From contig OZ254086.1 of the NCBI GenBank assembly GCA_965267575.1, positions 1,696,001-1,760,000 of the forward strand: DNA of 64,000 bases, given 5' to 3'. Source of the stretch: Calditrichales bacterium (GTDB lineage: Bacteria; Calditrichota; Calditrichia; Calditrichales; J004). The notes under the pieces were generated by a model, which saw only the letters and a list, made by a program, of their open reading frames with translations, did not search any database and was not told where the DNA came from. A program made the translations under genes and the position numbers. Shown one piece after another: positions 4,259 to 61,444 of this stretch (position 1 is its first letter; each line of letters starts with the position of its first letter).

Positions 4259-6115
4259 TTACTTGATAAGAACCAGCTTCTGGCTTAAAGCCCGGCCGGT
4301 CGCTACAAGACGAACGAAATAAATCCCGGATGCAAGCTCTTCGCCCGAATAGCGCTGAGAATGCAGGCCGGGATTTTTTTTGCCTTCAACCAGGGTCGCC
4401 ACAACGCGCCCGTTGATGTCATAAATTTTTAGGGCAACTGTTTCGGTCCTGTCAAGCTTGTAGCGAATGTTTATCTGGCTGTTAAAGGGATTGGGATATG
4501 CCGGAAGCAGTTCAAATGTTGTGGGACTGTTTGATTGCAGCCGCTCATCCTGCAGTGACGTCAGGATCAGGTCTTCAGGGCGGTTGCTGTTAACCAGCAT
4601 AACCGCGTCGCTGAACAGGATATCACCATCGGGCAAGTTGTGATTATCCAGGCGCAGGAACGTTTGTTCACCCTCCTGCAAATAAACATCGCCCACCTTA
4701 TGCCAGCGGCGGTGCCCGGGCTTGCGCTGATTGACATACACCGTGTCAGCGGGTCCATTGCTGTGCAGAAGCTGGTAAGGTGCCTGCTGATGTGCCGCAA
4801 ATTGATATATAATCCAGGCGTATACTTCGTACCAGCCTTCACGCGGCACCTGCGCGCTGTAAGTGATGGCGGCGGCGTCATTATCGGTAGCGTAAATACA
4901 ATCGGTATCTTCAAAACCCGGCAAAGTTGTGTAGGTCGTCCACGACCCGCTTTGCTGCACGGCGCTGCTGTCTTCGTTAATTATGATGGCCGGCAGGCGC
5001 CAGTCAGCCGGACGGTAGGGTACGTTTACTTTTTCGCTGTAAGGTCCGTTTTTCAACGTTTCATAATAAGCGCCCAGCCGCGCGTGATACCAGATCACGT
5101 GACCGGTCAGCCCCTCGTTGCGCGTTGTCTCAATCATTTTTACCAGCTCGGAAGGCGGCGTCTCATTGCTGTTTGCGATTGTCGAGATGCCGGGATAGAC
5201 CAATGTGTCGTTGTTTGTTTTTTTCAGTTCTTCGTTGAGACGGAAAGAATAGCTGCTGTTGCTGCTGTAGTAGACCTGCGGTGTCACCGTATCCAGCCAG
5301 CCATTGTTGATCCATGCCGGCCAGTCCTGGCAGAATTGTTCATAGCCGTACCACAGAGGCGCGTTGCTCACGTGCATTTCGGGATTAACCGCTTTTATGG
5401 AATCATACATTTCAGCCATGAACAGGTTAAGCTTGTCCGCCCGCCAGCGAATCCAGGCGGAGTTGCCGATGCTTGTGGGCGGCTCCTGCCCGTTGTGTTC
5501 GGACTTATATAGTTCCACCGTGGCCGAATCATAACCGCAATCCAGATCGGGGTAACGGACGCGGTCGAATTCTACGCCATCCAGATCATAGCGGCGAACG
5601 GCATCCAGTACGAATTGTATCAGAAATTCCTGGGCATCGCGGTTTACGTGGCTTAGCCATTTGTACTGCACGCCGCCGTTCGCTTCGAAGGTGGTATTGC
5701 CGTTACGCTTTTCGGCAAACCATTCCGGGTGTTCATTAAACAGGGCAAGATTGTTTCCCGCACAGGCCTGGAAGCCGGCCTCGAACCAGGCATCCACATT
5801 CAGACCATAGCGGTGGCCTTCGGCGATCATATCGGCCATGACATCGCGGCCTTCTTCCAGCAGCGGGTCCGTGTAATGGCCCGTTTCTTCATGAAACACA
5901 TTGCTGCGGAAGTAGGGCCAGCCAAAGCGCCATACATCCACGTATACAGTGTTAAAATTATTTTCTGAAAGCAGGCGCATCGCTTCGCTGATTTCTTCCT
6001 TGGACGGTATATCGTTACCGGCCCAGGCCAGCCAGGCTCCGCGTACTTCTCCTGCGTTAAGACCAAAGGCCATCAACAATGTAATTACGATGGAAATAAA
6101 CAATCTTTTTATCAC
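4259..6115 (-). CDS. Secreted GHL10 (DUF187) glycosyl hydrolase with golvesin/Xly-like CBM and T9SS-type C-terminal domain
   Basis: 'EVRGAWL', 'NFNTVY', 'HRYGLNVDAWFE', 'YDLDGVEFD', 'QDWPAW', 'PQVY'; CBM-like 'GWYEVYAW…WHKVG…DAVM'; CTD 'AYPNPFN…QKLVLIK'. Confidence 0.85.
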   Translation of the reverse strand: MIKRLFISIVITLLMAFGLNAGEVRGAWLAWAGNDIPSKEEISEAMRLLSENNFNTVYVDVWRFGWPYFRSNVFHEETGHYTDPLLEEGRDVMADMIAEGHRYGLNVDAWFEAGFQACAGNNLALFNEHPEWFAEKRNGNTTFEANGGVQYKWLSHVNRDAQEFLIQFVLDAVRRYDLDGVEFDRVRYPDLDCGYDSATVELYKSEHNGQEPPTSIGNSAWIRWRADKLNLFMAEMYDSIKAVNPEMHVSNAPLWYGYEQFCQDWPAWINNGWLDTVTPQVYYSSNSSYSFRLNEELKKTNNDTLVYPGISTIANSNETPPSELVKMIETTRNEGLTGHVIWYHARLGAYYETLKNGPYSEKVNVPYRPADWRLPAIIINEDSSAVQQSGSWTTYTTLPGFEDTDCIYATDNDAAAITYSAQVPREGWYEVYAWIIYQFAAHQQAPYQLLHSNGPADTVYVNQRKPGHRRWHKVGDVYLQEGEQTFLRLDNHNLPDGDILFSDAVMLVNSNRPEDLILTSLQDERLQSNSPTTFELLPAYPNPFNSQINIRYKLDRTETVALKIYDINGRVVATLVEGKKNPGLHSQRYSGEELASGIYFVRLVATGRALSQKLVLIK

Positions 6116-12674: not shown

Positions 12675-15578
12675 TTAAAAGGTGATCTCCGCTGTAAAAA
12701 AGATTTGCCGCGGTATATTGCGGAAAGTCTGGAAATAGTTGTAGATCTCAACGTCTCTTTGGATTCTTTCACCATTTATGTCATAGTCTCTGCTGTTATA
12801 TGTCACGCCTCGCAGAACCCATCTTTGAAGTTCTTCGCTTCCACTGATCGGCGTCAGGTGCTGGTTGTCAAAAAGATTGAGAATACGCATGCCCAGCTTC
12901 AATTTGTAGTCGCCAAAGCCAATGCTTTTTTGCAGTTTCAAATCGGTCGATGATTCCAGCGGATAGCGGCGGTTGGATTCCACTTCAAAATTGGTCTGGA
13001 ACGTTGGTGAATAAAAATAGGGCGCGCCGCTGGCCAAACGGTAAACGACATTGGCCGTAAAATTTTCCAGCGGATAGAATCCGAATATTTGAGGACCCTC
13101 ATTATCAAACCAGTTATAGGTAAGCGAGCCGTTAAAACGATGGGTCCGGTCTTCAGGTGCTATCAAATCCGTGGCATCATAAATAAAACGATCTTCAAGC
13201 AGAGCGCTTGCCTGGGCCACTTCTTTAATATCGCCGTAATAGCCAAAGGTTGTCTGGCTCAACGAGTAGCTGAAGCTGTAAAGCAGGTTACGGTCCTGGC
13301 GGTTGCGGAACTGAATCTCCACGCCGCGTGAGTTGCCGTAGCCGTTGTTTCTGTATGAAAGATAGGTCCCGGTTAGGTTGCGGTCGCTGGTGGAGCTTGC
13401 GGTGGGCGATTCAATGTAAACAACGGAAATCTGATCCTGCAGGTCGTTGTAGTAAGTCACGACGTCCAGTTGGTGCGTGTCCCATAGATTTTGTTGTACG
13501 CCCACTTCATAATTAACACTCAGCTTTGGCTTCAAATTAGGGTTACCATAATGATTCCAGCCATTGAAAGTTTGCTGGTCAAGCGCCTGATTAAAGGTGG
13601 GCATGGAACGGAAATGACCATACTGAACGCGGAAGGCGGTTCTTTCCCCAATCGGGAAGGAGATACCAAGCCGCGGGGAGAAGAAGGAGTAAGTTTTGGA
13701 ATCCTCCCACTCGGGCAAGCCTCGATTGGTGTTGCCATCGGCCTGATAAAAAATATTGTGTTCATCAACAGGAACATCGGCGCCAAAATTGTAAGCATCA
13801 AAGCGCACACCGGCATTGGCAATCATACCCGAAAATTCCAGCTTGTCCTGAACGTAGGCGGCCGTGTACCAGGATTTTGCCTTGTAGTTACTGGCAAACC
13901 CGGTGCGCCAGATATAAGCAGAAACCGTCTGCGATGAAGAGGCATTATAGTTCTGATCAAGAATCCAGCCTTCAAATCCTGCTTTAAAAAGATTGCCTTT
14001 ATCCAACTGGCTGCTAAAATGGCTTTTCAATTCGTAAAAATCAGAAAGCGAAGCCTGGTTGTAGAGGCTGGACCAGGTAAAGTAAGGACGATAATCAAGT
14101 GTGGTTATGCTTTCAAGAACACGGTCTTCTATTTCAGGATTTAATTGCCGGTCGCGATCGGTTCCCGGTGTGGGCGTTTGCAAAGCATAAAGCCGTTCAC
14201 TCTGATGCGTGAACGTTGTTTCCAGAAAAGATCGCGGCGAGAAAATGAGCTTGTAGTTTACGCTTTGCGCAAAAACGGTTTCTTCGCGCGGCGAGTCGTA
14301 GATCAGTGTGTATTTACGCTTGGCGCCGTACGTGCCCCACAGGCCGGCCCAGCGTATATCGCGTGAACCTGAGCCGATACCACTGTAAAAATACTGGTAC
14401 AGGCCGGTAAACTTCAGGTGGTGCTTCTCGTTTGGTTTATAGGCCACCACCAGCGAATAGTTTTGCAGACGCTGGATTTTTTCGCGGGTGGGCAGGCGTG
14501 TCGGATTGTTTTTAAGTTCGCCGGAAAGGAAAAATGTCATGTTGGTGTTGGCGCCGCCCAACGGGCCGCCCAGACTGAACAGGTAGCGCGTGTACGGATC
14601 GTTGCGGTAATCGTAAACACCCAAAGGATTGTCCGGCCCCGGTGTGTGATTGCGTATCCATTTTTCGTAATTAAGCTGCGCCAGGTTGCTATCTACCATA
14701 CCGGTATTTTGGTCGCGGTAAAGATTGTACCAGGTTTCATCCAGTTCGCCGTAGAGCTGCCATTCCGGTTGATCTTTGGAGTAGAGATATTCGCCCCAAT
14801 GGTATTTACCGGCCGGGCGGTATTCCATCATAAATCCGCCGGAAAACTGCGGTCCGCCATCTTTTGTGACGACTTTGACCACACCGGCCTGGGCGTTGCC
14901 GTATTCGGCGTTAAAGCCCCCTGTGATCAGCTCCATCTGCTCCACAGCCAGCGGGTTTATGTCATATTTCCAGTCGTTGTCCGACTTCTGGCCTGTCCCG
15001 TAAGCCGGCTGCCCGGAGTTGGTGGTAATACTTTTTATACCGTTGATTGTGTAGTTGATCTCGTCGGAGCCGCTGCCGCGGATGGAGAGCGTACCATCGG
15101 CGTTGCGGTTGATGGCTGCGTTCAGTTCCAGCACGTCGGTCAAAGCTTCGGCGGCCACGGCACGTATTTCCTGCGCTTCAAAGTGGCGCGAGCTGAATGT
15201 TTTGTCTGTTTCCACGATCGGGCGGTCGGCTGTTACCACAACGGCTTCGCTCATCTCCACGGCCTCTTCCCTCAGCTGCTGGTCGATGCGCGTGGTGCGG
15301 TCGATCTTTACGGATACATCTTCCACAACCACGGTCTGGTAACCGATGTAGGAAAATTCCAGGGTGTGGCTGCCGGGCGGCACGTTGAGGATAACGTAGT
15401 TGCCGTCTATATCGGTAGAGGCGCCAAGCTGCTGATTCTTAACGACGACGTTAACGCCGATGAGCGCTTCGCCGGTGCCGGCATCACTGACATAACCGGC
15501 TATTTTGCCGCTCTGGCCGAAAGCAATCGAAGAAAAAACAAAGCAAAACAAAATGGAGTAATAATTGAATCGATTCAC
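12675..15578 (-). CDS. TonB-dependent receptor
   Basis: N-terminal carboxypeptidase-regulatory-like domain 'GKIAGYVSDAGTGEALIGVNV', plug 'IRGS…TGGFNAEYGNAQAGVV', C-terminal 'PRQIFFTAEITF'. Confidence 0.92.
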   Translation of the reverse strand: MNRFNYYSILFCFVFSSIAFGQSGKIAGYVSDAGTGEALIGVNVVVKNQQLGASTDIDGNYVILNVPPGSHTLEFSYIGYQTVVVEDVSVKIDRTTRIDQQLREEAVEMSEAVVVTADRPIVETDKTFSSRHFEAQEIRAVAAEALTDVLELNAAINRNADGTLSIRGSGSDEINYTINGIKSITTNSGQPAYGTGQKSDNDWKYDINPLAVEQMELITGGFNAEYGNAQAGVVKVVTKDGGPQFSGGFMMEYRPAGKYHWGEYLYSKDQPEWQLYGELDETWYNLYRDQNTGMVDSNLAQLNYEKWIRNHTPGPDNPLGVYDYRNDPYTRYLFSLGGPLGGANTNMTFFLSGELKNNPTRLPTREKIQRLQNYSLVVAYKPNEKHHLKFTGLYQYFYSGIGSGSRDIRWAGLWGTYGAKRKYTLIYDSPREETVFAQSVNYKLIFSPRSFLETTFTHQSERLYALQTPTPGTDRDRQLNPEIEDRVLESITTLDYRPYFTWSSLYNQASLSDFYELKSHFSSQLDKGNLFKAGFEGWILDQNYNASSSQTVSAYIWRTGFASNYKAKSWYTAAYVQDKLEFSGMIANAGVRFDAYNFGADVPVDEHNIFYQADGNTNRGLPEWEDSKTYSFFSPRLGISFPIGERTAFRVQYGHFRSMPTFNQALDQQTFNGWNHYGNPNLKPKLSVNYEVGVQQNLWDTHQLDVVTYYNDLQDQISVVYIESPTASSTSDRNLTGTYLSYRNNGYGNSRGVEIQFRNRQDRNLLYSFSYSLSQTTFGYYGDIKEVAQASALLEDRFIYDATDLIAPEDRTHRFNGSLTYNWFDNEGPQIFGFYPLENFTANVVYRLASGAPYFYSPTFQTNFEVESNRRYPLESSTDLKLQKSIGFGDYKLKLGMRILNLFDNQHLTPISGSEELQRWVLRGVTYNSRDYDINGERIQRDVEIYNYFQTFRNIPRQIFFTAEITF

Positions 15579-15591
15579 GGTAAACCGGGGG

Positions 15592-15607
15592 TTGGTTTAT
15601 AAACTAA
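15592..15607. promoter_or_regulatory. Near-perfect 16-bp palindrome, candidate repressor operator
   Basis: TTGGTTTA|TAAACTAA, 13 bp upstream of the TBDR start codon. Confidence 0.35.
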
Positions 15608-15663
15608 ACAATCTTAATACCTTTCATCGATTATTGCAAAAGCATTTTGCTTTTTTCGGCTGC

Positions 15664-16830
15664 TTATCGGCGAAGAAAAGCCGGATTATGAGGCAGGCGG
15701 GCTTTAGTTTTGTAAGGGCCATTTAACAGCGTTTTTGCCAACAAATTGTTTTTTTTGCGCAGGCCCTCGTAAAAGAAGAAAACCTCTCCGTTAAGCCCAA
15801 AGCTTCGATTTAAGCGCACTTTCTCCAGCAGCATATCCTCCTCAATCACATATTCGCCCACATTCATCAATATGCCGGGATATATAATTTGCAGATCGTC
15901 TTCATTCAGGCCGACCGAATCGCTGCGAAAGGCCTGCAAAGTCTCCTCATAGCCATCCAGCGTGTAGCGATAGCATTGCGGATTAATCACGTCGGCGTAC
16001 CCGCCGTGGAGCCAATCGGGCCAGACCTGTAAATACTCCTGGTAGGACCAGGGGTAAATGCTGGGCGACCACGACACCCATACCGGCGACTTGATTGCCT
16101 TTACGCCTTCATACAGCCGGCGCCCGAAATCATTCAGCTTGGCGGCACGCCAGCGCAGCCACTCAGGGTCGTGATGGTCGCGCGGCGGTTCCTCGCCCGT
16201 TTCGCTCTCGTAAAGTGCGCGCGTGTACGGGCTATAACCCCCTTCCGATGGAATTGCCGGCAAACGGTCATCGCCCTGAACCCCGTCCACGTCATAATTG
16301 CGCACCACCTCCTGTACAAGACTCAAAAGCAAACTCTGCACATCAGGGTGGAAAGCATTCATCCACTCAAAGCCGTTCTTTGTAAGCAGGTTGCCTTCCG
16401 CATCCAACGCGGCCCATTCCGGAAAGGCGCGCAAAATGTGACCGCCGCCCTTTTCATGGGAGGCGGCAAAACCGTACTCAAACCAGGCGATGACAGCGAT
16501 GCCACGCTTGTGCGCCTCTTCCACGACTTCGGCTAAAGGGTCCCTTCCGGCGTAGGCGCTGTCAATGGGCAGATCAAACAGTGAATCCATCACCGCGCTG
16601 GGATAGAGCGTGCGCGCGTCGTTCCAGACGACGGGGTAAACCACGTTAAAATTATGTTGCGCCAGAAAGTCCATGGCCTCGGCGATGTTTTCACGGCTGT
16701 CAAGCACATCGCTGTCCACGTTTGTAAGCCAGACGCCGCGCCATTCATAAAAATTATCAGGCTGCGGTTCTTCGGCGCTGCAGGAGGAAAGCAGGGATAA
16801 AAGCATAAGCAGTATCGCGATTGTTTTCAT
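15664..16830 (-). CDS. GHL10 (DUF187) glycosyl hydrolase lipoprotein
   Basis: Lipobox LSSC; 'EWRGVWLTNVDS', 'RDPLAEVVEEAHKRGI.VIAWFEYG', 'YDVDGVQGDDR', 'PQCYR'. Confidence 0.88.
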   Translation of the reverse strand: MKTIAILLMLLSLLSSCSAEEPQPDNFYEWRGVWLTNVDSDVLDSRENIAEAMDFLAQHNFNVVYPVVWNDARTLYPSAVMDSLFDLPIDSAYAGRDPLAEVVEEAHKRGIAVIAWFEYGFAASHEKGGGHILRAFPEWAALDAEGNLLTKNGFEWMNAFHPDVQSLLLSLVQEVVRNYDVDGVQGDDRLPAIPSEGGYSPYTRALYESETGEEPPRDHHDPEWLRWRAAKLNDFGRRLYEGVKAIKSPVWVSWSPSIYPWSYQEYLQVWPDWLHGGYADVINPQCYRYTLDGYEETLQAFRSDSVGLNEDDLQIIYPGILMNVGEYVIEEDMLLEKVRLNRSFGLNGEVFFFYEGLRKKNNLLAKTLLNGPYKTKARLPHNPAFLRR

Positions 16831-18626
16831 GGTAGTTCCGCTGTAAGGGTTGAAAAGGGCTCAAAAATACTGTCCACAAGAAAAGCGAATTCGGCGCGGG
16901 TGATCGGTTTGTGCATTTTGCCGTTAGTGCCCTCCAAAAAATGCAGCGGACGTTTGCCGGATTTGTCCGTCTCCTGGCGGGATTTTATCTGGGCGCTCAG
17001 CAACAACGTCAGAGCATCAACGCGCGTTACCGGTGTCGATTTCGGTTTAAGGTCAAAAGAGGCGATGATATGCTTTTCCGCGAGCTTATCCAGAATGCGC
17101 TGCATCTCTTCCAGCGTTAGTTCAGCCTGAGGGTAGAAGTTGTAATGGTTGGCCCAGTTTTCGGTTTTGGCCTCGCCGCCCATAATGCCGCATACTGCCA
17201 GGCGCTGCACGGCGTAGAAAAACCAGTCATTGGCCTTCAGGTCCGTAAAAGGCATCAGCCAGCAGCCCGCTTCCAGCAGCGATTGCTGTACGGCGCGGAC
17301 ATCCGTTTTAGGCACGGGGAGGTTTTTTTTCGCGCAGAGTGCCGCTGCGGCTCCTGCTGCCTGCCCGATGCCCATCACCACCGGCTGCAACCTTGTGGCG
17401 CCGTTGGCCAGGTGGCTCACCGATATTGCTTTTTCGGCCACCAGCAATCCGCCGATTTCCTTAGGCAGCAGAGCGCCAAAAGGCACATAAAAAGCTTTAA
17501 TATCCGGCAAGTCTTCTTTCTCCTTCAAAGGCCCGCGATCGTGATGGTGGTCCAGCGGGTAGTTGCCCACGGCGATGGCATGATCCAGCAAGTGTCTCGA
17601 TTCTGCAGCGTATGGTTCGGCCAGGTCGTTGGCTGTCAGGGTTGCCCGTCCCTGAAGGCGTCGTCCTTCGCGATGGTAGGGGATCATGGCCAGACCGTCC
17701 GCGGTGGGAAATTCATCGCCGGCAATGCCCCAGTTTTTAAAACCAAGCTCATGCTGGATAAAATAGACAAACTGCAGTGTCCGGACTTTGGCTTGCTCAA
17801 ATGCGTCTTTGCGGGCATGCTCGTCGGCCTCCGCTACATTCACATAATAATCGTTGCCGCGGATGGGCCAGTTGATCATGGTTTTGTTGTTTGGCAGGCG
17901 GCCGTAGCTCAGCATTTTTTCAGCCGCAGGCGGATTGTTTTTGTCACCGGATGAAGCAAACTCGGCGCAGCAGCCGCGGAACAGCTCCGGGTCGTAACCT
18001 GCGGGGCGGGCAATGGTCTTATCCGCGTCTTTGCCGTAATCCTTCAGGATGGCCACCCAGGTCAAATCCTGAATGATGTCGTCGGCGGTTTTAGGCGCGC
18101 CTTTTTCGTTAAACGTTTCCCGGGCGTCCCGTCCCACGTTGTAGGCGCAACCGGCTGCAGCCAGCACATCGCCCAGCTCCGTCGCATCAATCGTTATTTT
18201 TGCTTCTACATCCAGCTCACCATCGGCTGAAACAAAACGCGCCCCGCGAACAACACCGTCATTTTTGAGTACGGCATCAAAACGCAGTGGCCAACGGAAC
18301 TTCAGATTTTTTTCAGCGGCGATTATATCCAGCAAAATCGTTCGCGCCACCGACGGTTCAAAGCAGGTGTGGCTCACCCAGCCCGTGGCCAGTTTGTCCG
18401 CGCCGCCGTAATGCTGTTCAAGGCGCCGGCGCAGCTCGCCAAAAATACCGGAAGGCAGGTCATGGTTGCCATCGATGCAACTTACGCCGGCAGCGGTCAG
18501 CATTCCGCCCGGCCAGTCATGCTCTTCGGTTAAAACGACCTTTGCTCCCAGCCGCGCCGCCTGGATAGCCGCGCTAACTCCGGAAGCCCCGGCCCCGATT
18601 ACCAATACATCACAGGATAGATTCAT
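16827..18626 (-). CDS. FAD-dependent oxidoreductase (FAD_oxidored family) with C-terminal SLH-like domain
   Basis: 'DVLVIGAGASGVSAAIQAAR', 'IDATELGD', 'PYHREGRRL.G', 'EKAISVSH.ANGATRLQP..M.IGQAAG'; tail 'FTDLKANDWF…GIMGG…FYP', 'ITRAEFA'. No signal peptide. Confidence 0.85.
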   Translation of the reverse strand: MNLSCDVLVIGAGASGVSAAIQAARLGAKVVLTEEHDWPGGMLTAAGVSCIDGNHDLPSGIFGELRRRLEQHYGGADKLATGWVSHTCFEPSVARTILLDIIAAEKNLKFRWPLRFDAVLKNDGVVRGARFVSADGELDVEAKITIDATELGDVLAAAGCAYNVGRDARETFNEKGAPKTADDIIQDLTWVAILKDYGKDADKTIARPAGYDPELFRGCCAEFASSGDKNNPPAAEKMLSYGRLPNNKTMINWPIRGNDYYVNVAEADEHARKDAFEQAKVRTLQFVYFIQHELGFKNWGIAGDEFPTADGLAMIPYHREGRRLQGRATLTANDLAEPYAAESRHLLDHAIAVGNYPLDHHHDRGPLKEKEDLPDIKAFYVPFGALLPKEIGGLLVAEKAISVSHLANGATRLQPVVMGIGQAAGAAAALCAKKNLPVPKTDVRAVQQSLLEAGCWLMPFTDLKANDWFFYAVQRLAVCGIMGGEAKTENWANHYNFYPQAELTLEEMQRILDKLAEKHIIASFDLKPKSTPVTRVDALTLLLSAQIKSRQETDKSGKRPLHFLEGTNGKMHKPITRAEFAFLVDSIFEPFSTLTAELP

Positions 18627-18933: not shown

Positions 18934-20397
18934 ATGCAAAACCTGCAACTGATCTTATTCCTGCTGATTTTCCTGGTGATGGCCGGCAGCATGTTTCTGC
19001 GCAAAATACCGGCTTTGCTGGCCCTGCCGCTAATGGCTTTCCTGATCCCGCTTGCCGGCGGTGTCGATCTGGACAGTACCATCCAGCTTGTTATCGGGGA
19101 AGGCGCGCTTAAACTGCACAACGCCTATACTGTAGCCATTTTCGGAAGCATGCTCAGCATTTTGCTGCAAAAAACCGGCGTGGCCGAAAGCTTTATCAAA
19201 AAAGGCGCGGAGCTGGCCGGCGACAATCCCTGGACCATCGGCGTGTTGATGATGATTTTGATTACCCTGCTGTTTACCACGCTGGGCGGTCTGGGCGCCA
19301 TCATTATGGTGGCCACCATCGTCCTGCCGATTATGTCATCCATTGGTATCGGGCCTATGACGGTGGTAGGCATTTTCCTGATCGGCCTTAGTATGGGCGG
19401 TATCCTTAACGCCGGCAATTGGGCGGTGTACGTCGACGTCATGGGACTTACCGTGGAAGAAATCCGCCCGTTTGCGTTGACCATGTTTGCCATAACCTTT
19501 GTGGCCGCGCTGCTCTACATCACCATTCAGTTGTACCGTGACGGCCACGACCTGCAGTGGAAACGAATAGGCTGGGGTGCCGCCATTTTTTTAGCGCTGA
19601 TTGTCGTGGCTGCCACCTTATACCTTAACGCCGGTGATGCCACCCGTGCCCAACTGGCGCGGTTTGGCGATATTCTCTCCAACGGCCTGAGCTGGCTGGT
19701 GGGGATCGGCCTGGCCTTGCTGGCGCTGTTGGTGATCATCCGTTTTGTGCGCTCGCTGCGTTCGCACTCCCGCGAAATTTACTGGGCGGCCTATTTCACA
19801 CCGCTGGTGCCGCTGCTGTTGATCCTTGTTTTTGCCATGAATTTTATTGCCGCCTTTATCTGCGGGTTGATTTACGGATTTATGGCCACGTACCGCAAAG
19901 GCAGTCTTAATACCCTGGTGCAATCGGTGCTGGAAGGCGGCGCCGTGGTTATGCCCGCCGTAGCCCTGATGCTAGGCATCGGCATGCTGTTGAACGCCAT
20001 TATCGGACCGGGGCCATCCTGGAGCGGTGAGTGGCCCGTGTTAACATTGTTGCGTCCCTTGCTTTTGGAGATTGTGCCCGAACAAAGCTGGAGTTATGTG
20101 TTGCTTTTTGGCCTTGCCGCACCCCTGGCGCTCTACCGCGGACCGCTTAACGTCTGGGGTATGGGTTATGGACTGGCCGCCGTGTTTCTGGCCAGCGGTA
20201 TGCAGCCCGGCGCGGTGATGGGCGTGCTGCTGGCAGTGGGCCAGGTGCAGGGTATCAGCGATCCGACAAACACGCACAACGTCTGGCTGGCCAATGAAAT
20301 GCAGCAGGACGTGCAAAAAGTATTGTGGAACACCATCCCTTACACATGGGCGGTGGCGGTGGTGGGCTTGATAGCCGCTGCAATCATATTCTATTAA
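18934..20397 (+). CDS. Ion-transporter superfamily permease (citrate transporter/GntP-like)
   Basis: About 12-13 TM helices; 'KIPALLALP', 'LFTTLGGLGAIIMVATIVLP', 'LYRGPLNVWGMG', 'DPTNTHNVW'. Confidence 0.75.
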   Translation: MQNLQLILFLLIFLVMAGSMFLRKIPALLALPLMAFLIPLAGGVDLDSTIQLVIGEGALKLHNAYTVAIFGSMLSILLQKTGVAESFIKKGAELAGDNPWTIGVLMMILITLLFTTLGGLGAIIMVATIVLPIMSSIGIGPMTVVGIFLIGLSMGGILNAGNWAVYVDVMGLTVEEIRPFALTMFAITFVAALLYITIQLYRDGHDLQWKRIGWGAAIFLALIVVAATLYLNAGDATRAQLARFGDILSNGLSWLVGIGLALLALLVIIRFVRSLRSHSREIYWAAYFTPLVPLLLILVFAMNFIAAFICGLIYGFMATYRKGSLNTLVQSVLEGGAVVMPAVALMLGIGMLLNAIIGPGPSWSGEWPVLTLLRPLLLEIVPEQSWSYVLLFGLAAPLALYRGPLNVWGMGYGLAAVFLASGMQPGAVMGVLLAVGQVQGISDPTNTHNVWLANEMQQDVQKVLWNTIPYTWAVAVVGLIAAAIIFY

Positions 20398-20417: not shown

Positions 20418-22571
20418 ATGAGAAAGATAAAGATTGGGATTGACGTAGGGGGCACATTTACGCACGCGGTGGCGGTGGATATCGCCGATTTCTCGATTGT
20501 GGGCAAGGCGGTTGTACCCACTACGCACAGGGCCAAGGAAGGTGTTGCCTCCGGCGTGGTGCAATCCCTGGATAAGCTGCTGGAAGAAGCACGTATCAAG
20601 CGTGAAGAAGTGATCCTTATCGCTCATTCCACCACGCAGGCCACAAACGCGCTGCTGGAAGGCGACGTGGCCACGGTAGGCATCATCGGGATGGGCAAGG
20701 GCTTTGAAGGCAAAATAGCCGCCCGCGAAACCAACCCTAAAAACATCGAACTGGCGCCGGGCAAGTTTCTGCAAACGCGCCACGTTTTTCTGGATACGGC
20801 AAATGGCCTGAAAGACAACCGGATTAAAGAAGCTCTGCAAACGCTGAAAAAACAGGGCGCGGAAGTGATCGTGGCTTCTGAGGCTTTTGGTGTGGACGAT
20901 ACGCGCCATGAAGAACGCGTGATGACAATGGCCCGCGAGATGGGTTTTCTGGCGACGGCAGCCAGTACAATTTCGCAGCTTTACGGTCTGCGCATCCGCA
21001 CGCGCACAGCGGTCATTAATGCCAGCATGATGCCGCGCATGCTGGAAACAGCCAACATGACCGAGCAGTCCGTCCGTGAAAGCGGGATTGAAGCGCCGCT
21101 GATGATCATGCGTTCGGACGGCGGTATTATGGACATCAACGAGATGCGTAAGCGTCCCATTTTAACGATGCTTTCCGGGCCGGCGGCGGGCGTGGCCGCG
21201 GCACTAATGTACGCACGTATCTCTGACGGTATTTTCATCGAAGTGGGCGGTACGTCCAGCGACATCTCAGTGATCAAGAACGGCAAGCCGCAGGTGAAAA
21301 GCGCACAGATTGGCGGCAACCGGCTTTTTCTGCGCACGCTGGATGTGCGCACACTGGGTATCGCCGGGGGCTCCATGCCGCGCCTGAAAGATAACCACTT
21401 CGTGGACGTGGGTCCGCGTAGCGCCCATATCGCCGACCTGGCCTATATTTCCTTCGCCGCCGATGCCGATTTCAGCGCTTTTGAGATGGAATTTTTCCGG
21501 CCAAAGGAGGGCGACCCGGAGGATTATTTTTACGTTCAGCCGCAAAACAACACCACCCGCTATACGATCACGCCAACCGGCGCAGCCAATTTTTTGGGCT
21601 ACGTAAAAACGGAAGGACACGGCGCGGCGGAAATGTCCGTTCTGCAATCTTTTTTTAAGGCCTTTTCCCAAAAGACCGGACGCGATGCCGAGGAACTGGC
21701 CCGCGAAATCCTGACCCTTAGCGCGGAGAAAATCAAACCGGTTATTAAGCGGCTGATGCGCGAATATAAGCTGGACCCGGAGATGGTGCGCTTTGTGGGT
21801 GGCGGTGGCGGCGCGCCGGCGCTGGTGCCCTTCACCGCGGAGTTCATGGAAGTGGAGCACACCATCGCTGAAAACACGGAGGTCATTTCCGCCATTGGCG
21901 CGGCGCTTGGGATTATTCGTGATTCTGTGGAACGCACCGTGCTCAATCCAACGGAAAGCGATATTGTTTCCATCCGCCAGGAGGCGATGCAATCGGTCGA
22001 AGCTATGGGTGCCGTGCCCGAAAGCATCGAGGTGAGCGTGGAGGTGGATACGCGCAATAAACGGTTGATCGCCGTAGCCACCGGTTCCAGCGAAATGCGT
22101 GCCCGCGACCTGGAGATTGCCGAGAAAAGCGAAGAGGAAATCGCTGAAATTGCTGCGCGCTCCCTGAAAACGGACAGGGCCAAAGTGGGGATGGTCGGCA
22201 AAACCAATTTTCTCTGCGCTGCGATTGCAGAAATCGAAAAGAGTTACTTTTTTGGCCTGCTGAAGGAAAAAGAGAAGCGCGTGAGAGTCATCGACCGCGA
22301 GGGCGTTGTTCGGTTGCAGGTAAACGATTGCCTTGCAGAAGAAGTACGCGCCGGAGAAGCCCGGTCGACGATCTCGCGCATGATTGAAGAGCTGACCGCT
22401 TATGGCGATGCAGGCGCCCTTGTGCCGGACATTTTTGTGCTCGTCTCGTCGCGCATTGTCGACCTGACCGGGCTGGTGCAGGAAAGCCAGATCGCCGCGT
22501 TGGTGGATATCGAGCTCAAGTCCCTGCCCGACAGCGAAGCGGTGATCATTATCGCCCAGCGCAAAAAGTGA
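20418..22571 (+). CDS. Hydantoinase/oxoprolinase A-family (ASKHA-fold) ATPase, stand-alone
   Basis: '[10 protein letters not shown]', '[13 protein letters not shown]', 'MRSDGG', 'TMLSGPAAG', 'EVGGTSSDI', 'VGPRSA', 'GGGGG…SAIGAA'. Confidence 0.88.
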
Positions 22572-22781: not shown

Positions 22782-24149
22782 ATGCGCCTTAACAGCCTGG
22801 ATGCTTTACGCGGCATCGCCATCCTGGGGATGGTTCTTTCGGGGACGATTCCCTATGGCAGCCTGCCCACATGGATGTACCACGCCCAGCTTCCCCCGCC
22901 GGACCACGCTTTTTCTCCCGACCTGCCCGGCTTCACCTGGGTCGACCTCGTTTTCCCGCTTTTTTTATTTGCGCTGGGCGCGGCCATCCCGTTGGCCCTG
23001 CAGCGCCGACTGGACAAAGGGGCGAGTGTCAGAGAAGTTTCTTTTTACATTGTGCACCGCAGTTTTCTTCTGGCCTTTTTTGCCATCTTTCTGCAGCATG
23101 TGCGTCCGCACCAAATTGCCAATCCCCCGACGGCACAGGCCTGGTTGTTGGCCCTGGCCGGTTTTGTCGTGCTTTTCCTGATCTTTATGCGCCTGCCGCA
23201 ATCTATCGGCAAAATAAAAACGTGGGGCCTGCGTGCCGCGGGTTGGCTGGGCGCCTTGTTGCTACTGGTTTTTGTTCAATTTCCGGATGGCGGCGGTTTC
23301 TCCCTGCAACGCAGCGATATCATCATCCTGGTTTTGGCCAACATGTATTTTTTTGGCGCTTTTATCTGGCTGGCCACACGCAAAAACGCCGAATGGCGCT
23401 GGGCGGTTTTGGCGCTCTACCTGGCCTGGCGTTTGTCGCACGGCGAGGCGGAGTGGCTGGAAGCGGCCTGGAACTGGTCGCCGGCGCCGTGGTTGTATAA
23501 AGCCGGTTTCCTGAAATACCTGTTTATCGTTCTGCCCGGCACAATGGCCGGGGAGTGGTGGATGCGGCGTAAGGAGCAAACCGACCGGATGCCCGCGGCA
23601 AGACGTGTTCTTTTTTCGGTACTGGTCGTCGCTATGATTTTCCTGCTTTTCGCCGGGCTGCACTCCAGGCATGTGGCTCTTACTTTTGCCTGTTCGATTG
23701 CCTTGCTGCTGGCGGGACATTTTATGGTCAAACCGGCGGCATTATTTTTCAGGCAGACATACCTTCTGGCTGCCTTTTGTCTTGTGCTGGGATTGATCTG
23801 GGAGCCATTTGAAGGCGGCATCAAAAAAGATCCATCGACGATGAGCTTCTATTTTGTCACGCTGGGCATGTCGCTGATTGTGTTGCTTTTGCTGCACCTG
23901 GTGCTGGATCGCGGCGAGCCCGGCTGGTTTGGTCGCCTGCTTTTGAATAACGGGCGCAACCCGATGATCGCCTATGTAGGTATGGCCAACCTCATCTGGC
24001 CGTTGACGCATTTGAGCGGCATACAAAAAATAATCGAGCAATGGACGGCAGCACCCTGGCCGGGCTTTTTACGCGGGCTGGCCTTTACGCTCTTACTGGC
24101 CTGGATCGTGCACCTGTTTACACAAAAAAAATGGATTTGGAGAGCTTAA
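22782..24149 (+). CDS. DUF5009/NagX-like membrane protein (heparan-alpha-glucosaminide N-acetyltransferase-like)
   Basis: 'RLNSLDALRGIAILGMVL', 'WMYHAQ.PPP', 'GFTWVDLVFPLFLF..G.AIP', 'GIKKDPST.S', 'GRNPMIAY'. Confidence 0.85.
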   Translation: MRLNSLDALRGIAILGMVLSGTIPYGSLPTWMYHAQLPPPDHAFSPDLPGFTWVDLVFPLFLFALGAAIPLALQRRLDKGASVREVSFYIVHRSFLLAFFAIFLQHVRPHQIANPPTAQAWLLALAGFVVLFLIFMRLPQSIGKIKTWGLRAAGWLGALLLLVFVQFPDGGGFSLQRSDIIILVLANMYFFGAFIWLATRKNAEWRWAVLALYLAWRLSHGEAEWLEAAWNWSPAPWLYKAGFLKYLFIVLPGTMAGEWWMRRKEQTDRMPAARRVLFSVLVVAMIFLLFAGLHSRHVALTFACSIALLLAGHFMVKPAALFFRQTYLLAAFCLVLGLIWEPFEGGIKKDPSTMSFYFVTLGMSLIVLLLLHLVLDRGEPGWFGRLLLNNGRNPMIAYVGMANLIWPLTHLSGIQKIIEQWTAAPWPGFLRGLAFTLLLAWIVHLFTQKKWIWRA

Positions 24150-26044
24150 TGATACGATTTCTGAAAACGGCTTTTGTAATGGTCATTTTTTCGGCAATGA
24201 CCTTGCCGGCGCAAGTTAAGGAATTCCGCGCCGTAAAGATTACCAACGTGGACAGCGAGGTCATGTTTTTCGACGGGGCCATTGCCTCTGCCATGGATTA
24301 CCTGGCGTCAATCAATATCAACGTGGTGCTGGTGGTGGTCTGGAATGGCAGTCAAACCGACGGCACGCATACGCTTTATCCCAGCGCGGTGATGGATTCG
24401 CTTTTTGGCCGGCCCATTCACCCACACCCCAAAATTGTCGGCCGTGATCCGCTTAAACGCATCATCATTGAAGCGCATCGCAACGGCATCGAGGTGTTCC
24501 CCTGGTTTGAACTGGGCTTTGCCACGGGATACAATCAGAACGGCGGCTATATTTTAAAGCAAAAACCGGAGTGGACCCTGCGTGACCGCCAGGGCAACCT
24601 GGTAAATGAAAACGGCTTCGACTGGATGAGCGCCATCCATCCCGGGCCGCAGCAAATGATCCTGGACCTGGCGCTGGAAGTAGTGGATAAGTACGACGTG
24701 GATGGCGTGGAATGGTCGGACCGCATACCTGCACTGCCCGTGGAAGGCGGCTACGAAGACACCACCGTGGCCATGTACAAAGCGGAGCATAACGGGCAAT
24801 CGCCGCCGCAGGACTATAACAATAGTGCCTGGAAAGAGTGGCGCGCAGACAAAATGACCGACTACCTGGGCCGCGTGCGCGATTCCATTAAAGGACGGGG
24901 CGAACACCTCATCTTTTCGTCGAGCCCGTCGGTCTATCCCTGGGGTTATGACAACTACTTGCAGGACTCCGAAGAGTGGGTCGACCGCGGCATCATTGAC
25001 AACCTGATCCCGCAGCTTTACCGCTATTCGCTGGAGGACTACATCGCCGAACTGGATAAATCGCTCAGCTATGTGCCGCTCTCCTGGCATAACCGTTTTT
25101 ACGCCGGGTTATTGGTTAGATCGGGCAGCTATGTAATCGACCCGGAATTCATGCTGGAATCGATTGCTGCCAACCGTGCCCGCAATGTTTACGGCGATGT
25201 TTTCTTTTTTTACGAAGGCCTGCGCGCCAACGACGACTTGCTGGGGGATACGCTGAAAGCGACATACTACGGCGAGAAAGCACTGAATCCGGAAAGGGAG
25301 GGTGTGTGGCGTCCGCTGCCGGAAATCGTGAATGAGGATGACGACAATGTGGCCGCTGAAGGCGACTGGACAGAGACATCGAGCAATGGCTACGACGATA
25401 CCATTCTCTACGCCGCCGGCTCTTCGGATGCTTCTATTACCTATAGCTTTGATGTGCCCTACGACGGCTGGTTCGATCTATTTGCGTATGTGGTCACCGG
25501 CGGGCTGGCCGCGGAAAACGCGCCTTATACCGTGCTGCATCCTGACGGCGACAGCACCAGTATCATCATCAACCAGGTGGATGGCCGCAATGGGGGCTGG
25601 CAACCGCTGGAAACGCTTTACCTGGAACAAGGCTTACATACGCTGCTACGCCTCTCCACGGATGGTGTTGCCGCGGACCGCAAGGTTACCGCCGATGCCG
25701 CCATGCTGATGCTGAACCGCAAGCTGTCGCCGGATGTGCTCGTCACCGGCATCGATAAAGAACCCGTCTTGGCAAGGGTTGAAAACTTTACTCTTTACGA
25801 AAACTATCCCAACCCTTTCAACGGGCAGACGACGATTCGCTTTGAATTACAGCGCGCCGCGCATGTGCGTTTGGAGGTTTTTGATTTACTGGGCAGGAAG
25901 GTGCAGACATTGTTAAACGAACAGCGCCCGGCGGGAGCACACACAGCCCGTTTCAACAGCGCCACTCTTTCCAGCGGTTTCTACTTCTACCGCCTTACAG
26001 ATGGAAAAAATACGCAAGCGCGCAAGATGCTGTTGATTAAGTAG
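24149..26044 (+). CDS. Secreted GHL10 glycosyl hydrolase with golvesin/Xly-like CBM and T9SS-type C-terminal domain
   Basis: TAATG overlap with the upstream stop; signal peptide; 'EFRAVKITNVDS', 'RDPL…EAHRNGIEV.PWFE', 'YDVDGVEWSDR'; CTD 'NYPNPFN…RKMLLIK'. Confidence 0.87.
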   Translation: MIRFLKTAFVMVIFSAMTLPAQVKEFRAVKITNVDSEVMFFDGAIASAMDYLASININVVLVVVWNGSQTDGTHTLYPSAVMDSLFGRPIHPHPKIVGRDPLKRIIIEAHRNGIEVFPWFELGFATGYNQNGGYILKQKPEWTLRDRQGNLVNENGFDWMSAIHPGPQQMILDLALEVVDKYDVDGVEWSDRIPALPVEGGYEDTTVAMYKAEHNGQSPPQDYNNSAWKEWRADKMTDYLGRVRDSIKGRGEHLIFSSSPSVYPWGYDNYLQDSEEWVDRGIIDNLIPQLYRYSLEDYIAELDKSLSYVPLSWHNRFYAGLLVRSGSYVIDPEFMLESIAANRARNVYGDVFFFYEGLRANDDLLGDTLKATYYGEKALNPEREGVWRPLPEIVNEDDDNVAAEGDWTETSSNGYDDTILYAAGSSDASITYSFDVPYDGWFDLFAYVVTGGLAAENAPYTVLHPDGDSTSIIINQVDGRNGGWQPLETLYLEQGLHTLLRLSTDGVAADRKVTADAAMLMLNRKLSPDVLVTGIDKEPVLARVENFTLYENYPNPFNGQTTIRFELQRAAHVRLEVFDLLGRKVQTLLNEQRPAGAHTARFNSATLSSGFYFYRLTDGKNTQARKMLLIK

Positions 26045-31752: not shown

Positions 31753-32451
31753 TCACTTCATTGCTTTTACAAAGCGTTCGGTTATCAGCCAGGGACGCGT
31801 GATGGCCGAGCCAACAACCACCGCGTGAGCGCCGAGGTCCAGCGCCTGGCGCGCCTGCTCCGGCGTCCAGATGCGGCCTTCGGCAATGACCGGTATGTGC
31901 GGGGCGAATTCTTTTACACATTGCTGTAGTAATTCAAAATCAGGCAGATTGTCTTTTGCACGTGCTTTGGTTTCTTCGGTGTAGCCCGACAAAGTGGTCC
32001 CGATCAGGTCAAACCCGAGTTTGGTTGCATGGCGGGCATCGTCAAGCGTGGCAATATCGGCCATGAGCAGGGCGGGTGTGCTGGCGCGCAGTTTGGCTAT
32101 CATCGCAGACAGATCGGCATTTTCGGGTCGCACGCGCCTCGTGGCGTCCATGGCGATGATCGCGCAGCCGGTTGCTGCCACGGCCATGGCCTCCTTTTCA
32201 GTCGGCGTAATAAATACGGGGCTATCGGCATATTCCTTTTTAAAAATCCCGATCACAGGCATTTTAACGACACGTGCAATGGCCCGGATATTTTCGGGGT
32301 AGTTTGCGCGAATACCGGCGGCGCCGCCTAAGACAGCCGCCTTGGCCATGGCCGCCAGAATATGCGGCTGCCCCAAAGGCTCATGGCCCTCCGCCTGGCA
32401 GGAAACAATCAGACGGTTTTTGATGTGATTTAAAAGCTCTTTTTTGTCCAT
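31753..32451 (-). CDS. nanE: N-acetylmannosamine-6-phosphate 2-epimerase
   Basis: 'LIVSCQA', 'MAKAA..GGAAGIRAN', 'PVIGI.K', 'VFITPT', 'MADI', 'GTTLSGYT', 'VIAEG', 'VVVGSAITRP'. Confidence 0.95.
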   Translation of the reverse strand: MDKKELLNHIKNRLIVSCQAEGHEPLGQPHILAAMAKAAVLGGAAGIRANYPENIRAIARVVKMPVIGIFKKEYADSPVFITPTEKEAMAVAATGCAIIAMDATRRVRPENADLSAMIAKLRASTPALLMADIATLDDARHATKLGFDLIGTTLSGYTEETKARAKDNLPDFELLQQCVKEFAPHIPVIAEGRIWTPEQARQALDLGAHAVVVGSAITRPWLITERFVKAMK

Positions 32452-32460
32452 AGTTTTTAA

Positions 32461-32500
32461 GTCCTGATGTCTCGAGGTCTTGATGTCTTGAAGTCATGAT
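32461..32500. repeat. Five tandem imperfect octamers (GTCYTGAW)
   Basis: gtcctgat gtctcgag gtcttgat gtcttgaa gtcatgat, 9 nt upstream of the nanE ATG. Confidence 0.8.
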
Positions 32501-32506
32501 TCCTCT

Positions 32507-32600
32507 GTCTGAACTGTGATTTGTGTGATGAAATGATTTCTTGATTTTAAGAATTCTGAATCATCGTCCATCAGGTAATCATAAGAATCATAGTTCAGAC
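32507..32600. repeat. 94-bp imperfect palindromic element, copy 2
   Basis: Terminal inverted repeats GTCTGAACTGTGATT…AATCATAGTTCAGAC; 80/94 identical to 22594-22687 in inverted orientation. Confidence 0.88.
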
Positions 32601-32617
32601 TTTGTGTGTTATCCCGG

Positions 32618-32652
32618 GATCCCGGTGTCGCTCGTCCGCGAACCGGGATGAC
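32618..32652. repeat. REP-like hairpin
   Basis: GATCCCGGTGTCGC-TCGTCC-GCGAACCGGGATGAC, immediately after the GH94 stop. Confidence 0.75.
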
Positions 32653-32655
32653 ACA

Positions 32656-35082: not shown

Positions 35083-35125
35083 TTCTTTCCTTTTATATTT
35101 TTGATTTCTTTGTTACAGTGCGGAA

Positions 35126-36520: not shown

Positions 36521-36525
36521 AAGCC

Positions 36526-61401: not shown

Positions 61402-61414
61402 GGTCAGACTCTTG

Positions 61415-61444
61415 GCGGGGCGGTTTTTCCGCCCCGCTTTTTTT
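61415..61444 (+). terminator. Rho-independent terminator between the TBDR and the symporter
   Basis: GCGGGGCGG-TTTTT-CCGCCCCGC followed by T7. Confidence 0.8.

Follow-up and report, generated by a model that had tools for sequence, protein, structure and literature searches.

An S-layer-homology-derived module as a fixed part of a large FCB-group flavoenzyme family from amino-sugar glycan loci

Why should a flavoprotein with no export signal end in sequence of the S-layer homology (SLH) type? This question was raised by a gene in a 64,000-nucleotide stretch of DNA from a Calditrichales bacterium (contig OZ254086.1, positions 1,696,001 to 1,760,000 of the forward strand), hereafter the window, in which a minus-strand open reading frame (ORF) fills exactly positions 16827..18626 and, on translation, gives a flavoprotein of 599 amino acids (P0001) with an SLH-derived tail. 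The peptides quoted in an earlier, sequence-only reading of this DNA were all present in the translation, namely GAGASG at residues 11–16, PFTDLKANDWFFYAVQRLAVCGIMGG...FYPQAELT from residue 459, PVTRVD at 532–537 and PITRAEFA at 574–581. That reading had also stated that the protein opens directly at the Rossmann motif without a signal peptide, in line with the N-terminus of P0001, MNLSCDVLVIGAGASG, and with the position of the motif at residues 11–16. An in-frame TAG lies two codons upstream of the ATG at 18626, which makes a longer N-terminus or a signal peptide impossible with a canonical start, and P0002, which is 91% identical to P0001 and comes from another assembly, has the identical start position. 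From the absent signal peptide, we infer that the flavoprotein is located in the cytoplasm of this organism.

Profile and model comparisons showed the last ~140 residues of P0001 to be homologous to SLH trimers, and the earlier identification of the tail as SLH was borne out by Pfam, by a profile search of the Protein Data Bank (PDB), by two fold searches and by a reciprocal profile search. When the proposed check with the Pfam hidden Markov model (HMM) of the SLH family, PF00395, was run, its cut-off of 20.8 bits was exceeded both by the whole protein (21.4 bits, residues 459–508) and by the tail alone (26.9 bits, E 4.6e-6). The match above the cut-off came from the first of three repeats alone, and repeats 2 and 3 did not score separately. 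SLH was also the sole family matched in a Pfam scan of 24 family tails, nine of which reached E ≤ 0.01. Compared singly with the PDB sequences at E ≤ 10, the tail gave three matches, all of them entries for the SLH domain of OmpM. With a profile built from a 24-sequence tail alignment (A2), nine matches were obtained at the same threshold, the top six being all SLH proteins: Sap (3pyw, 2.3e-6; 6bt4, 4.5e-6), OmpM (8bz2, 1.6e-5; 8bys; 8bym) and 9g93. Matches seven to nine had E values of 0.43–0.9.

The structure prediction that had been proposed as a further check was likewise run, and the predicted tail matched SLH trimers. The template-free AlphaFold model of the tail alone (predicted local distance difference test, pLDDT, 86.1; predicted template modelling score, pTM, 0.83) had three core helices, and Foldseek placed Sap and SpaA SLH trimers at all of ranks 1–15, the probability being at most 0.11 from rank 16 onwards. 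Its best match was 3pyw (E 3.4e-4, query TM-score (TMq) 0.60), which was also the sole match at E ≤ 0.001. When the tail was compared by VIA-align with 48,161 chains, Z ≥ 8 was reached by two only, SpaA-SLH (Z 9.4, rmsd 3.0 Å, 104 aligned residues) and Sap-SLH (Z 9.1, rmsd 3.9 Å, 113 aligned residues), and the next chain stood at Z 5.2.

For the reciprocal search, the tail profile was run over 1.84 billion representative proteins without a word index, which returned 16,441 matches at E ≤ 1e-3, 466 of them at E ≤ 1e-10. At least four matched stretches were present in 17 of the best 150 proteins, and these 17 were without exception canonical multi-SLH proteins (PF00395 E 1.5e-32 to 5.7e-79), none of them with the flavoenzyme domain PF12831, and 10 of 10 scanned matches with one or two stretches carried PF12831. 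A word-index search of a 5.8-billion-protein set with the P0001 tail alone retrieved only two proteins, the tail being too divergent for the index.

As judged from the predicted models, the tail was shown to be a compacted, degenerate SLH trimer in which three core helices are kept and one lobe is full, one deleted and one reduced. The secondary structure of the tail in the full-length model comprises a helix at residues 470–478, a beta-hairpin at 485–496 and longer helices at 505–517, 535–549 and 577–588, these three being headed by LTLEE, VTRVD and ITRAE; the sole low-confidence stretch of that model was 551–570. This layout agrees with the description of SLH trimers in the available part of PMC6081394, according to which a parallel three-helix core carries TRAE motifs at the helix N-termini. 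The corresponding heads in P0001 are TLEE, without the arginine, TRVD (Arg535) and TRAE (Arg577), and those given for SpaA in the same partial text are TRAE, TVEE and TRAQ.

Repeat 1 (residues 459–517; 17076..17252, minus strand) was delimited from the PF00395 match at 459–508, the OmpM SLH alignment, column counts and secondary structure. It is complete, with PFTD, Trp468, GIMGG including Gly484, a beta-hairpin insert with an invariant Trp491 and Asn493, and the TLEE core helix. Of repeat 2 (residues 533–549; 16980..17030, minus strand), which was located by profile alignment of the family consensus to the TRAE helix of Sap SLH1 and by the model helix at 535–549, the TRVD core helix is kept and the lobe is lost. 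Repeat 3 (residues 560–593; 16848..16949, minus strand), located by the tail alignment, by profile alignment to the Sap SLH repeats and by column counts, contains ITRAEFAFLVD with Arg577 and is reduced in P0001, where its first helix is lost; it is complete in most of 23 relatives aligned (F-x-D-V ... G-W ... T-R-x-E). In the model, the tail matches whole SLH trimers, which fold into a pseudo-threefold 'three-prong spindle' around a parallel three-helix core, and has three core helices of its own, but one lobe is missing and one reduced. The SLH origin given in the earlier reading stood, with the correction that one of three repeats is complete and one of three classical grooves keeps its residues.

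Which determinants of a ligand site survive can be read from residue counts in a 94-sequence family alignment (A1, from which P0003 was excluded). In the available part of PMC6081394, the site of SLHn is described as needing SLH-Gly29 of SLHn, SLH-Trp13 of SLHn+1 and SLH-Arg43 of SLHn+2, and groove G1 of SpaA as binding pyruvate through a salt bridge with Arg177 and the backbone amide of Gly46; TRAE mutants are reported there to misfold. Gly484, the Gly29 of repeat 1, was present in 85 of the 94 sequences and Gly480 of the same GIMGG motif in 92, and Arg577, the Arg43 of repeat 3, in 90, with lysine in the other four. The pair that holds pyruvate in SpaA G1, as far as that source was available, is therefore matched in the tail by the glycine of the GIIxG motif of repeat 1 and the TRAE arginine of repeat 3. 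Ala581 (89/94) and Asp585 (85/94) of repeat 3 were also well kept; Arg535, the Arg43 of repeat 2, was found in 59 sequences, and position 505, its counterpart in repeat 1, was variable. The GIIxG motif, represented in repeat 1 by GIMGG, is absent from repeats 2 and 3, so that only groove 1 retains two of the three determinants. This groove has Gly484 and Arg577 and lacks the Trp13: a stacking tryptophan from repeat 2 is impossible because its lobe is gone, and Trp468, the Trp13 of repeat 1, was kept in 31 of 94 sequences. Grooves 2 and 3 lack the glycine, and a complete binding site was thus found in none of the three. Three residues specific to the family, Gln474 in helix alpha-1 and Trp491 and Asn493 in the hairpin after GIMGG, were present in all 94 sequences and lie in the groove-1 lobe, where the invariant Trp491 could stand in for Trp13.

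The closest solved counterparts are the SLH trimers of Bacillus anthracis Sap (3PYW/6BT4) and Paenibacillus alvei SpaA (6CWC and related entries), to which the tail is homologous by profile (E 2.3e-6) and by fold (TMq 0.60; Z 9.1–9.4) and with which it shares three core helices, each with a TRAE-type head. It differs from them in being shorter (~140 residues versus ~165–170), in the deleted lobe of repeat 2 and the reduced lobe of repeat 3, which leave one candidate groove, in the beta-hairpin insert with its invariant Trp-x-Asn, in its C-terminal fusion to an enzyme that in P0001 has no signal peptide, and in its hosts, diderms of the Fibrobacteres–Chlorobi–Bacteroidetes (FCB) group, of which the one genome checked, that of the present organism, lacks the polysaccharide pyruvyltransferase family PF04230. 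The best single-sequence relative of repeat 1 was the SLH domain of OmpM from diderm Firmicutes (8BZ2, 8BYS, 8BYM; E 0.064 with the single sequence and 1.6e-5 with the profile). Both are SLH domains in diderms; however, OmpM forms trimers from chains with a single SLH each and links the outer membrane to peptidoglycan, the last being described in the available part of PMC10628300, whereas P0001 carries three degenerate repeats in one chain and on a flavoenzyme. Neither the fold nor the enzyme superfamily is new; what is new is their combination and the rebuilding of an SLH trimer as an enzyme domain in FCB diderms. Papers found on the DUF4434, DUF4985 and DUF5009 families did not treat this locus, those found on PF12831 were unrelated, and for GHL10 and DUF187 the literature found dealt with Cwp19 and DogH only. 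Nothing relevant was found among the matches listed in a literature search combining S-layer homology with FAD-dependent oxidoreductase, and no paper on the family's SLH module or function was found in a search that did not extend to supplementary tables.

A whole-protein search gave at least 7,989 relatives, 7,989 of the 8,000 scored candidates being at E ≤ 1e-3. The best 120 matches were 43–54% identical to P0001, save one at 91%, and bore the source names KSB1, Calditrichota, Zhuqueibacterota, Chitinophaga, Fulvivirga and Cyclobacteriaceae. The tail was present in 94 of the 94 aligned family members, and these alignments showed the SLH-derived module to be a constant component of this very large flavoenzyme family of the FCB group. 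In a genome scan, at least 583 relatives were found among 600 pattern matches, and the locus counts given here refer to the best 80 loci of these. They were mostly from Bacteroidota, including Bacteroides, Prevotella, Phocaeicola, Alistipes, Pedobacter, Sphingobacterium and Flavobacteriaceae. In 73 of the 80, the flavoprotein had at least 17 extra N-terminal residues compared with P0001, which is compatible with export; by a crude rule, 62 of these 73 extensions contained a hydrophobic run, and many had a lipoprotein-like cysteine. The remaining seven had at most eight extra residues (one being truncated at a contig end), and all came from metagenome-assembled genomes (MAGs) labelled Calditrichota, KSB1, Neomarinimicrobiota, Caldisericaceae or 'uncultured bacterium'. 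The signal-less form, as far as these N-termini indicate, is a minority state within an otherwise exported family. The sequence-only reading, which had taken the protein for a cytoplasmic enzyme carrying an SLH tail, needs revision here, since the tail is fixed family-wide and most relatives look exported. That the tail and its invariant residues are kept in exported and signal-less members alike argues against a wall anchor and for a role inside the enzyme.

Several members depart from the common architecture. P0228 (908 aa) is a fusion of flavoprotein and tail to a C-terminal NAGPA phosphodiester glycosidase, and P0248 has a calcineurin-like metallophosphoesterase fused N-terminally to flavoprotein and tail; seven of the 15 members of the P0248 cluster are 1083–1125 aa long, and the NCBI gene calls in this cluster are shorter (593–806 aa). 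The long forms P0122, P0135, P0269 and P0133 (768–996 aa) have an extension of ~340 aa after the SLH module, in which no Pfam family was matched at E ≤ 1; only faint matches to PSII_BNR and NHL were obtained, to judge from which it may be a beta-propeller. In P0003 (829 aa), ~210 residues of the N-terminal FAD domain are duplicated internally, probably as an assembly artefact.

The catalytic part of P0001 is a complete PF12831 FAD_oxidored domain (residues 6–450; 17277..18611, minus strand; E 1.7e-99, profile positions 1–416 of 416) with the GxGxxG motif for flavin adenine dinucleotide (FAD), GAGASG, at residues 11–16, as had been expected when a search with this HMM was proposed. It was the only full-length PF12831 copy in the genome. 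The full-length AlphaFold model had a pLDDT of 93.6 and a pTM of 0.94. Matches of P0001 in the PDB sequence search were limited to the first ~50 Rossmann residues. With the whole model, Foldseek gave TM-scores of 0.24–0.34 to fumarate reductases, KstD, geranylgeranyl reductases, MnmG and others, and VIA-align gave Z 15–19 to FixC, geranylgeranyl reductase (GGR), urocanate reductase, Thi4 and many more, none of which stood out. The FAD-binding fold of these two-dinucleotide-binding-fold flavoenzymes (FixC/ETF-QO, GGR, urocanate and fumarate reductases, KstD, MnmG, Thi4) is thus shared over residues ~1–450 (Z 15–19); however, identity to them is 10–21% at TM-scores of 0.24–0.34, and none of them has an SLH module. 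Since no solved flavoenzyme is close and no match is preferred, no reaction can be transferred. The family alignment has conserved polar motifs, INWPxxGNDYY, YHRExRR and GxYPxDHHH, and invariant Tyr356, Asp359 and His361; these point to a polar substrate and name no reaction. Database names are equally generic, the family being called 'FAD-dependent oxidoreductase' and the clusters of eight members either this or 'hypothetical'. A lead to xanthan lyase, a name carried by some PF12831 proteins and an enzyme of which a pyruvated-mannose-specific form exists, was dropped, as a literature search, one published table and the database names gave no support for a link.

The genes around P0001 were considered next to those of its relatives. 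The flavoprotein gene is translationally coupled, by the ATGA overlap of its stop with the following start that had been noted earlier, to a gene for a GHL10 lipoprotein of 388 aa (15664..16830, minus strand; PF02638 E 5e-63) with a lipoprotein-type signal in its N-terminus, MKTIAILLMLLSLLSSC, and with Cwp19 as its sole PDB sequence relative (E 3.8e-8). The same gene string contains a SusC-like TonB-dependent receptor (12675..15578, minus strand; CarbopepD_reg_2, Plug and TonB barrel, with a partial TIGR04056 match) and, beyond it, a 668-aa protein with a weak type IX secretion system (T9SS) tail, a PorV/PorQ-family protein and further outer-membrane genes. The receptor, the PorV/PorQ-like protein and the T9SS tails support the earlier assignment to a diderm host. 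No Pfam SusD family was found in the window genes downstream of the flavoprotein, and thus no SusC/SusD pair.

Divergently from the flavoprotein gene, the plus strand encodes a polytopic membrane protein of 487 aa (18934..20397) with 13 hydrophobic 19-aa windows, likely an inner-membrane permease, for which no Pfam or NCBIfam match was obtained; a HyuA-like ATPase of the ASKHA fold and the hydantoinase A family (20418..22571; 717 aa; PF01968 and PF05378); a DUF5009 transmembrane N-acetyltransferase resembling HGSNAT (22782..24149; PF16401 E 2.4e-78, with a weak NagX match); and a secreted protein with the Pfam domains GHL10 and Golvesin_C and a T9SS sorting domain (24041..26044). A second secreted protein with the same Pfam composition is encoded at 4259..6115 on the minus strand. 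Three GHL10 paralogues (4259–6115, 15664–16830 and 24041–26044) lie inside 22 kb; Golvesin_C and T9SS domains are present in two, and the third is a simple lipoprotein. The ORF called at 24041 overlaps the DUF5009 gene by ~109 nt, and the true start is probably a later Met before the hydrophobic MIRFLKTAFVMVIF.

A further operon, 13 kb farther on (31753..37968, minus strand), encodes NanE (298 bits versus a cut-off of 189), a GH94 phosphorylase, a GlmM-like mutase and a DcuC/YfcC-type transporter by Pfam and NCBIfam matches, and probably belongs to the pathway of the flavoprotein. The GH94 protein is about equally near to cellobiose and to chitobiose phosphorylases. The operon would suit phosphorolysis of a disaccharide containing N-acetylmannosamine (ManNAc), such as one of ManNAc linked beta-1,4 to N-acetylglucosamine (GlcNAc), although to our knowledge this activity has not been described for GH94. 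Directly downstream of NanE lies a gene for a DUF4185 protein with a T9SS sorting domain (30010–31749, minus strand), with local similarities of 78–106 aa at 33–44% identity in L001 and L003–L006 and of 255 aa at 25% in L077. A second string of amino-sugar appearance, at 57079–63998 on the plus strand, comprises genes for an AmiA-like protein resembling N-acetylmuramoyl-L-alanine amidases, for a second CarbopepD_reg/TonB receptor and for an SSF transporter, as well as an unannotated ORF extending past the window edge.

The genome itself is a single contig of 4.73 Mb and 98% complete, and no PF04230 polysaccharide pyruvyltransferase was found in it. Its one further SLH protein is a lipoprotein of 357 aa that combines TPR-like repeats with two SLH-like repeats at the C-terminus (G000:C1:2362987-2364060; L081 4988-6061, plus strand). 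NanE is present as a single copy, in the window, and NanA and the GlcNAc 2-epimerase AGE gave no match in the genome, so that ManNAc-6-phosphate would not come from sialic acid cleavage. Sialic acid was consequently dropped as a substrate, there being no NanA in the genome and no aldolase or sialidase among the annotated neighbour clusters (1–20, and 24 of clusters 21–59).

In the 80 related loci, ORFs were called and clustered and the cluster representatives annotated, the counts including truncated loci. The neighbours found were SusC (39 loci), ROK (36), AGE (31), SusD (26), GHL10 (25, mostly with DUF4985), DUF4434 (23), DUF5009 (20), GDSL esterase (16), NAGPA phosphodiester glycosidase (13), SSF (13), DUF5018 (12), GH20 (8) and GH92 (7); directly adjacent to the flavoprotein gene were SusC in 26 loci, AGE in 19, ROK in 13 and NAGPA in nine. 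The four nearest non-Bacteroidota loci, L002–L005, have the arrangement of the window, with permease, HyuA-like and DUF5009 genes on one side and the flavoprotein–GHL10 pair on the other: relatives of the 487-aa membrane protein at 60–69% identity adjoin the flavoprotein gene in all four, and the HyuA-like ATPase is beside it in L002, L004 and L005. In L005, from a Neomarinimicrobiota MAG, NanE, GH94 and PGM genes (12885–17448) follow directly after the flavoprotein–GHL10 pair, and in L001 and L006 the flavoprotein gene is followed by an Antibiotic_NAT acetyltransferase, NAGPA and GDSL. This gene content showed the family to belong to amino-sugar glycan loci, and the position of the gene among amino-sugar glycan genes that include ManNAc-linked epimerases makes a sugar-recognition role for the module reasonable.

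A known locus with similar gene order is BT0433–BT0438 of Bacteroides thetaiotaomicron, a predicted NanR regulon whose ROK, GlcNAc 2-epimerase, DUF4434 and sugar transporter genes and SusC/D neighbours are shared with the 80 loci, and a full-length PF12831 domain is common to P0001 and to loci of this type. The equation of this locus with the family rests on gene order, the BT flavoprotein gene not having been identified from its own sequence. In Table 2 of Ravcheev et al. (PMC3878776), as far as the source was available, BT0433 is listed as the ROK regulator 'NanR' for 'sialic acid; N-acetylglucosamine'. BT0434 and BT0435 were named in no Bacteroides paper found in a literature search outside which supplementary tables lay. 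The relatives in loci of this type are 42–54% identical to P0001; in contrast to them, P0001 has no signal peptide, and the window has a receptor string without SusD, a permease and HyuA-like pair in place of ROK, and NanE in place of AGE.

The reading that we favour, with a probability of roughly 0.45, is that the module is a binding element integral to the enzyme, with one retained anion groove, for an anionic derivative of an N-acetylhexosamine (HexNAc) that carries a carboxylate or a phosphate. The Gly484/Arg577 pair of groove 1 would hold the anionic group, and the flavin domain would convert the derivative. The ManNAc epimerase, N-acetyltransferase, O-acetyl esterase and phosphodiester-cleaving links of the loci would fit pyruvylated secondary cell-wall polymers or HexNAc phosphates of the teichoic-acid type, and 4,6-pyruvyl-ManNAc of secondary cell-wall polymers, the classical ligand of SLH domains, is an attractive, if speculative, candidate ligand or substrate. 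In such a pathway, the secreted and lipoprotein GHL10 enzymes would cut a foreign amino-sugar polymer of the cell envelope; the TonB receptor and the permease, with its 13 putative transmembrane segments, would import the fragments; the signal-less flavoprotein and the HyuA-like ATPase would act on them in the cytoplasm; DUF5009 would re-acetylate free amines; and GH94, the mutase and NanE would pass ManNAc and GlcNAc phosphates to central metabolism. The corresponding step in Bacteroidota would take place after export of the flavoprotein.

A narrower proposal would make the family a 'depyruvylase', in which FCB scavengers turned the SLH anchor into a pocket for 4,6-pyruvyl-ManNAc and the flavin domain removes the ketal; we regard it as a long shot. 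Oxidative decarboxylation would yield a cyclic acetoxonium ion and from it an O-acetyl ester, which the co-encoded GDSL esterases would clear, and the ManNAc set free would be available to AGE or NanE. On the same proposal, the phosphodiester linkage, the backbone and the de-N-acetylated residues of the secondary cell-wall polymers would be left to NAGPA, GHL10, GH20 and DUF5009. How enzymes depyruvylate glycans was called unclear in the available part of a 2026 paper (PMC13750104).

Several observations weigh against a ligand-binding module of the kind that we favour. Repeat 3 is shortened in P0001 itself, and the classical stacking tryptophan is missing, as repeat 2 has no lobe and Trp468 is kept in so few relatives (31/94). 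The conservation of Arg577 and Gly484 could reflect folding alone. Only nine of the 24 tails reached E ≤ 0.01 with PF00395, and the fold matches of the catalytic domain are generic, spreading over many flavoprotein classes (Foldseek TM-scores 0.24–0.34; VIA-align Z 15–19). The genomic context is heterogeneous: in 48 of the 80 loci the fetched flank contained no epimerase, and related loci also include genes for GH92, sulfatase and 3-keto-disaccharide hydrolase. As regards the removal of a ketal, we know of no chemical precedent for a flavin-dependent reaction.

The main rival is a tail that serves as a structural cap or dimerisation scaffold, its conserved residues packing on the catalytic domain and holding no ligand. 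The loss or reduction of two of the three lobes and the poorly kept Trp13 (31/94) would suit such a cap, as would the pTM of 0.94, which indicates rigid packing on the catalytic domain, and the fact that 10 of 10 scanned non-repeat matches have the tail with no other catalytic domain; a role of the TRAE arginine in folding, described in the available part of PMC6081394, points the same way. However, the best-kept residues, Gly484 (85/94) and Arg577 (90/94), are precisely those that form the ligand-groove pair in SpaA, and the invariant Trp and Asn of the hairpin and Gln of helix alpha-1, which lie in the same lobe, are residues typical of sugar binding. On balance, a purely structural tail appears rather unlikely to us.

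A second alternative keeps the ligand groove and changes the substrate, to N-acetylmuramic acid (MurNAc) of peptidoglycan: the groove would hold the D-lactyl carboxylate of denuded strands and the flavin would oxidise the lactyl ether to give GlcNAc and pyruvate, in parallel to MurQ. In its favour, Cwp19, the one solved protein related in sequence to the coupled GHL10 protein, is described, in the available part of the source, as a peptidoglycan lytic transglycosylase. The AmiA-like amidase gene in the window would also be accommodated, and DUF5009 and GDSL would suit an N-deacetylated and O-acetylated peptidoglycan. Escherichia coli DigH, also a GHL10 protein, cleaves denuded glycans. The nearest sequence relative of repeat 1, the OmpM SLH domain, is itself described as a peptidoglycan tether in the part of its source available. 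Against this stand a bona fide MurQ in the genome (392 bits versus a cut-off of 302), a ManNAc-epimerase link (AGE adjacent in 19 of 80 loci; NanE here and in L005) that a GlcNAc product would leave unexplained, and the lack of any muropeptide amidase or peptidase as a recurrent neighbour among the annotated clusters, all of which make a MurNAc substrate distinctly improbable in comparison with the anionic HexNAc derivative that we favour.

The missing signal peptide might also be an artefact of a non-canonical start, a frameshift or an assembly error, the protein being exported like its Bacteroidota relatives; that its operon partner GHL10 is a lipoprotein and that the family mostly looks exported would fit this, but the TAG two codons before the ATG, the identical start of the 91% identical P0002 in a separate assembly, and six more full-length relatives from four differently labelled lineages that also begin at the Rossmann motif render it very hard to credit. 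The classical role, in which the tail would hold the enzyme by non-covalent contacts on a wall polymer or on peptidoglycan of the cell envelope, as OmpM SLH is described to do in diderm Firmicutes (PMC10628300, available in part) and as the export-compatible extensions of 73 of 80 relatives would allow, is scarcely tenable and was rejected for P0001, in keeping with what the sequence-only reading had implied, because P0001 lacks the extracytoplasmic location of SLH proteins (no signal peptide, and the stop codon just upstream), its genome has no PF04230, two of the three grooves are destroyed, and P0001 and six more relatives without a signal peptide keep the tail with the same invariant residues.

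Were the depyruvylase proposal true, the recycling of pyruvylated wall polymers from dead Gram-positive cells would be explained. The known function of SLH modules is non-covalent wall anchoring; an SLH trimer rebuilt into a constant domain of a catabolic flavoenzyme would put the fold to a new use, seen across thousands of proteins of Bacteroidota, KSB1, Calditrichota and their relatives. The family stands at the core of a widespread orphan nutrient locus, in Bacteroides, Prevotella and Alistipes of the gut, in Pedobacter and Chitinophaga of soils and in marine Flavobacteriaceae, and the module would offer a concrete handle on its substrate, an anionic N-acetylhexosamine, together with named residues.

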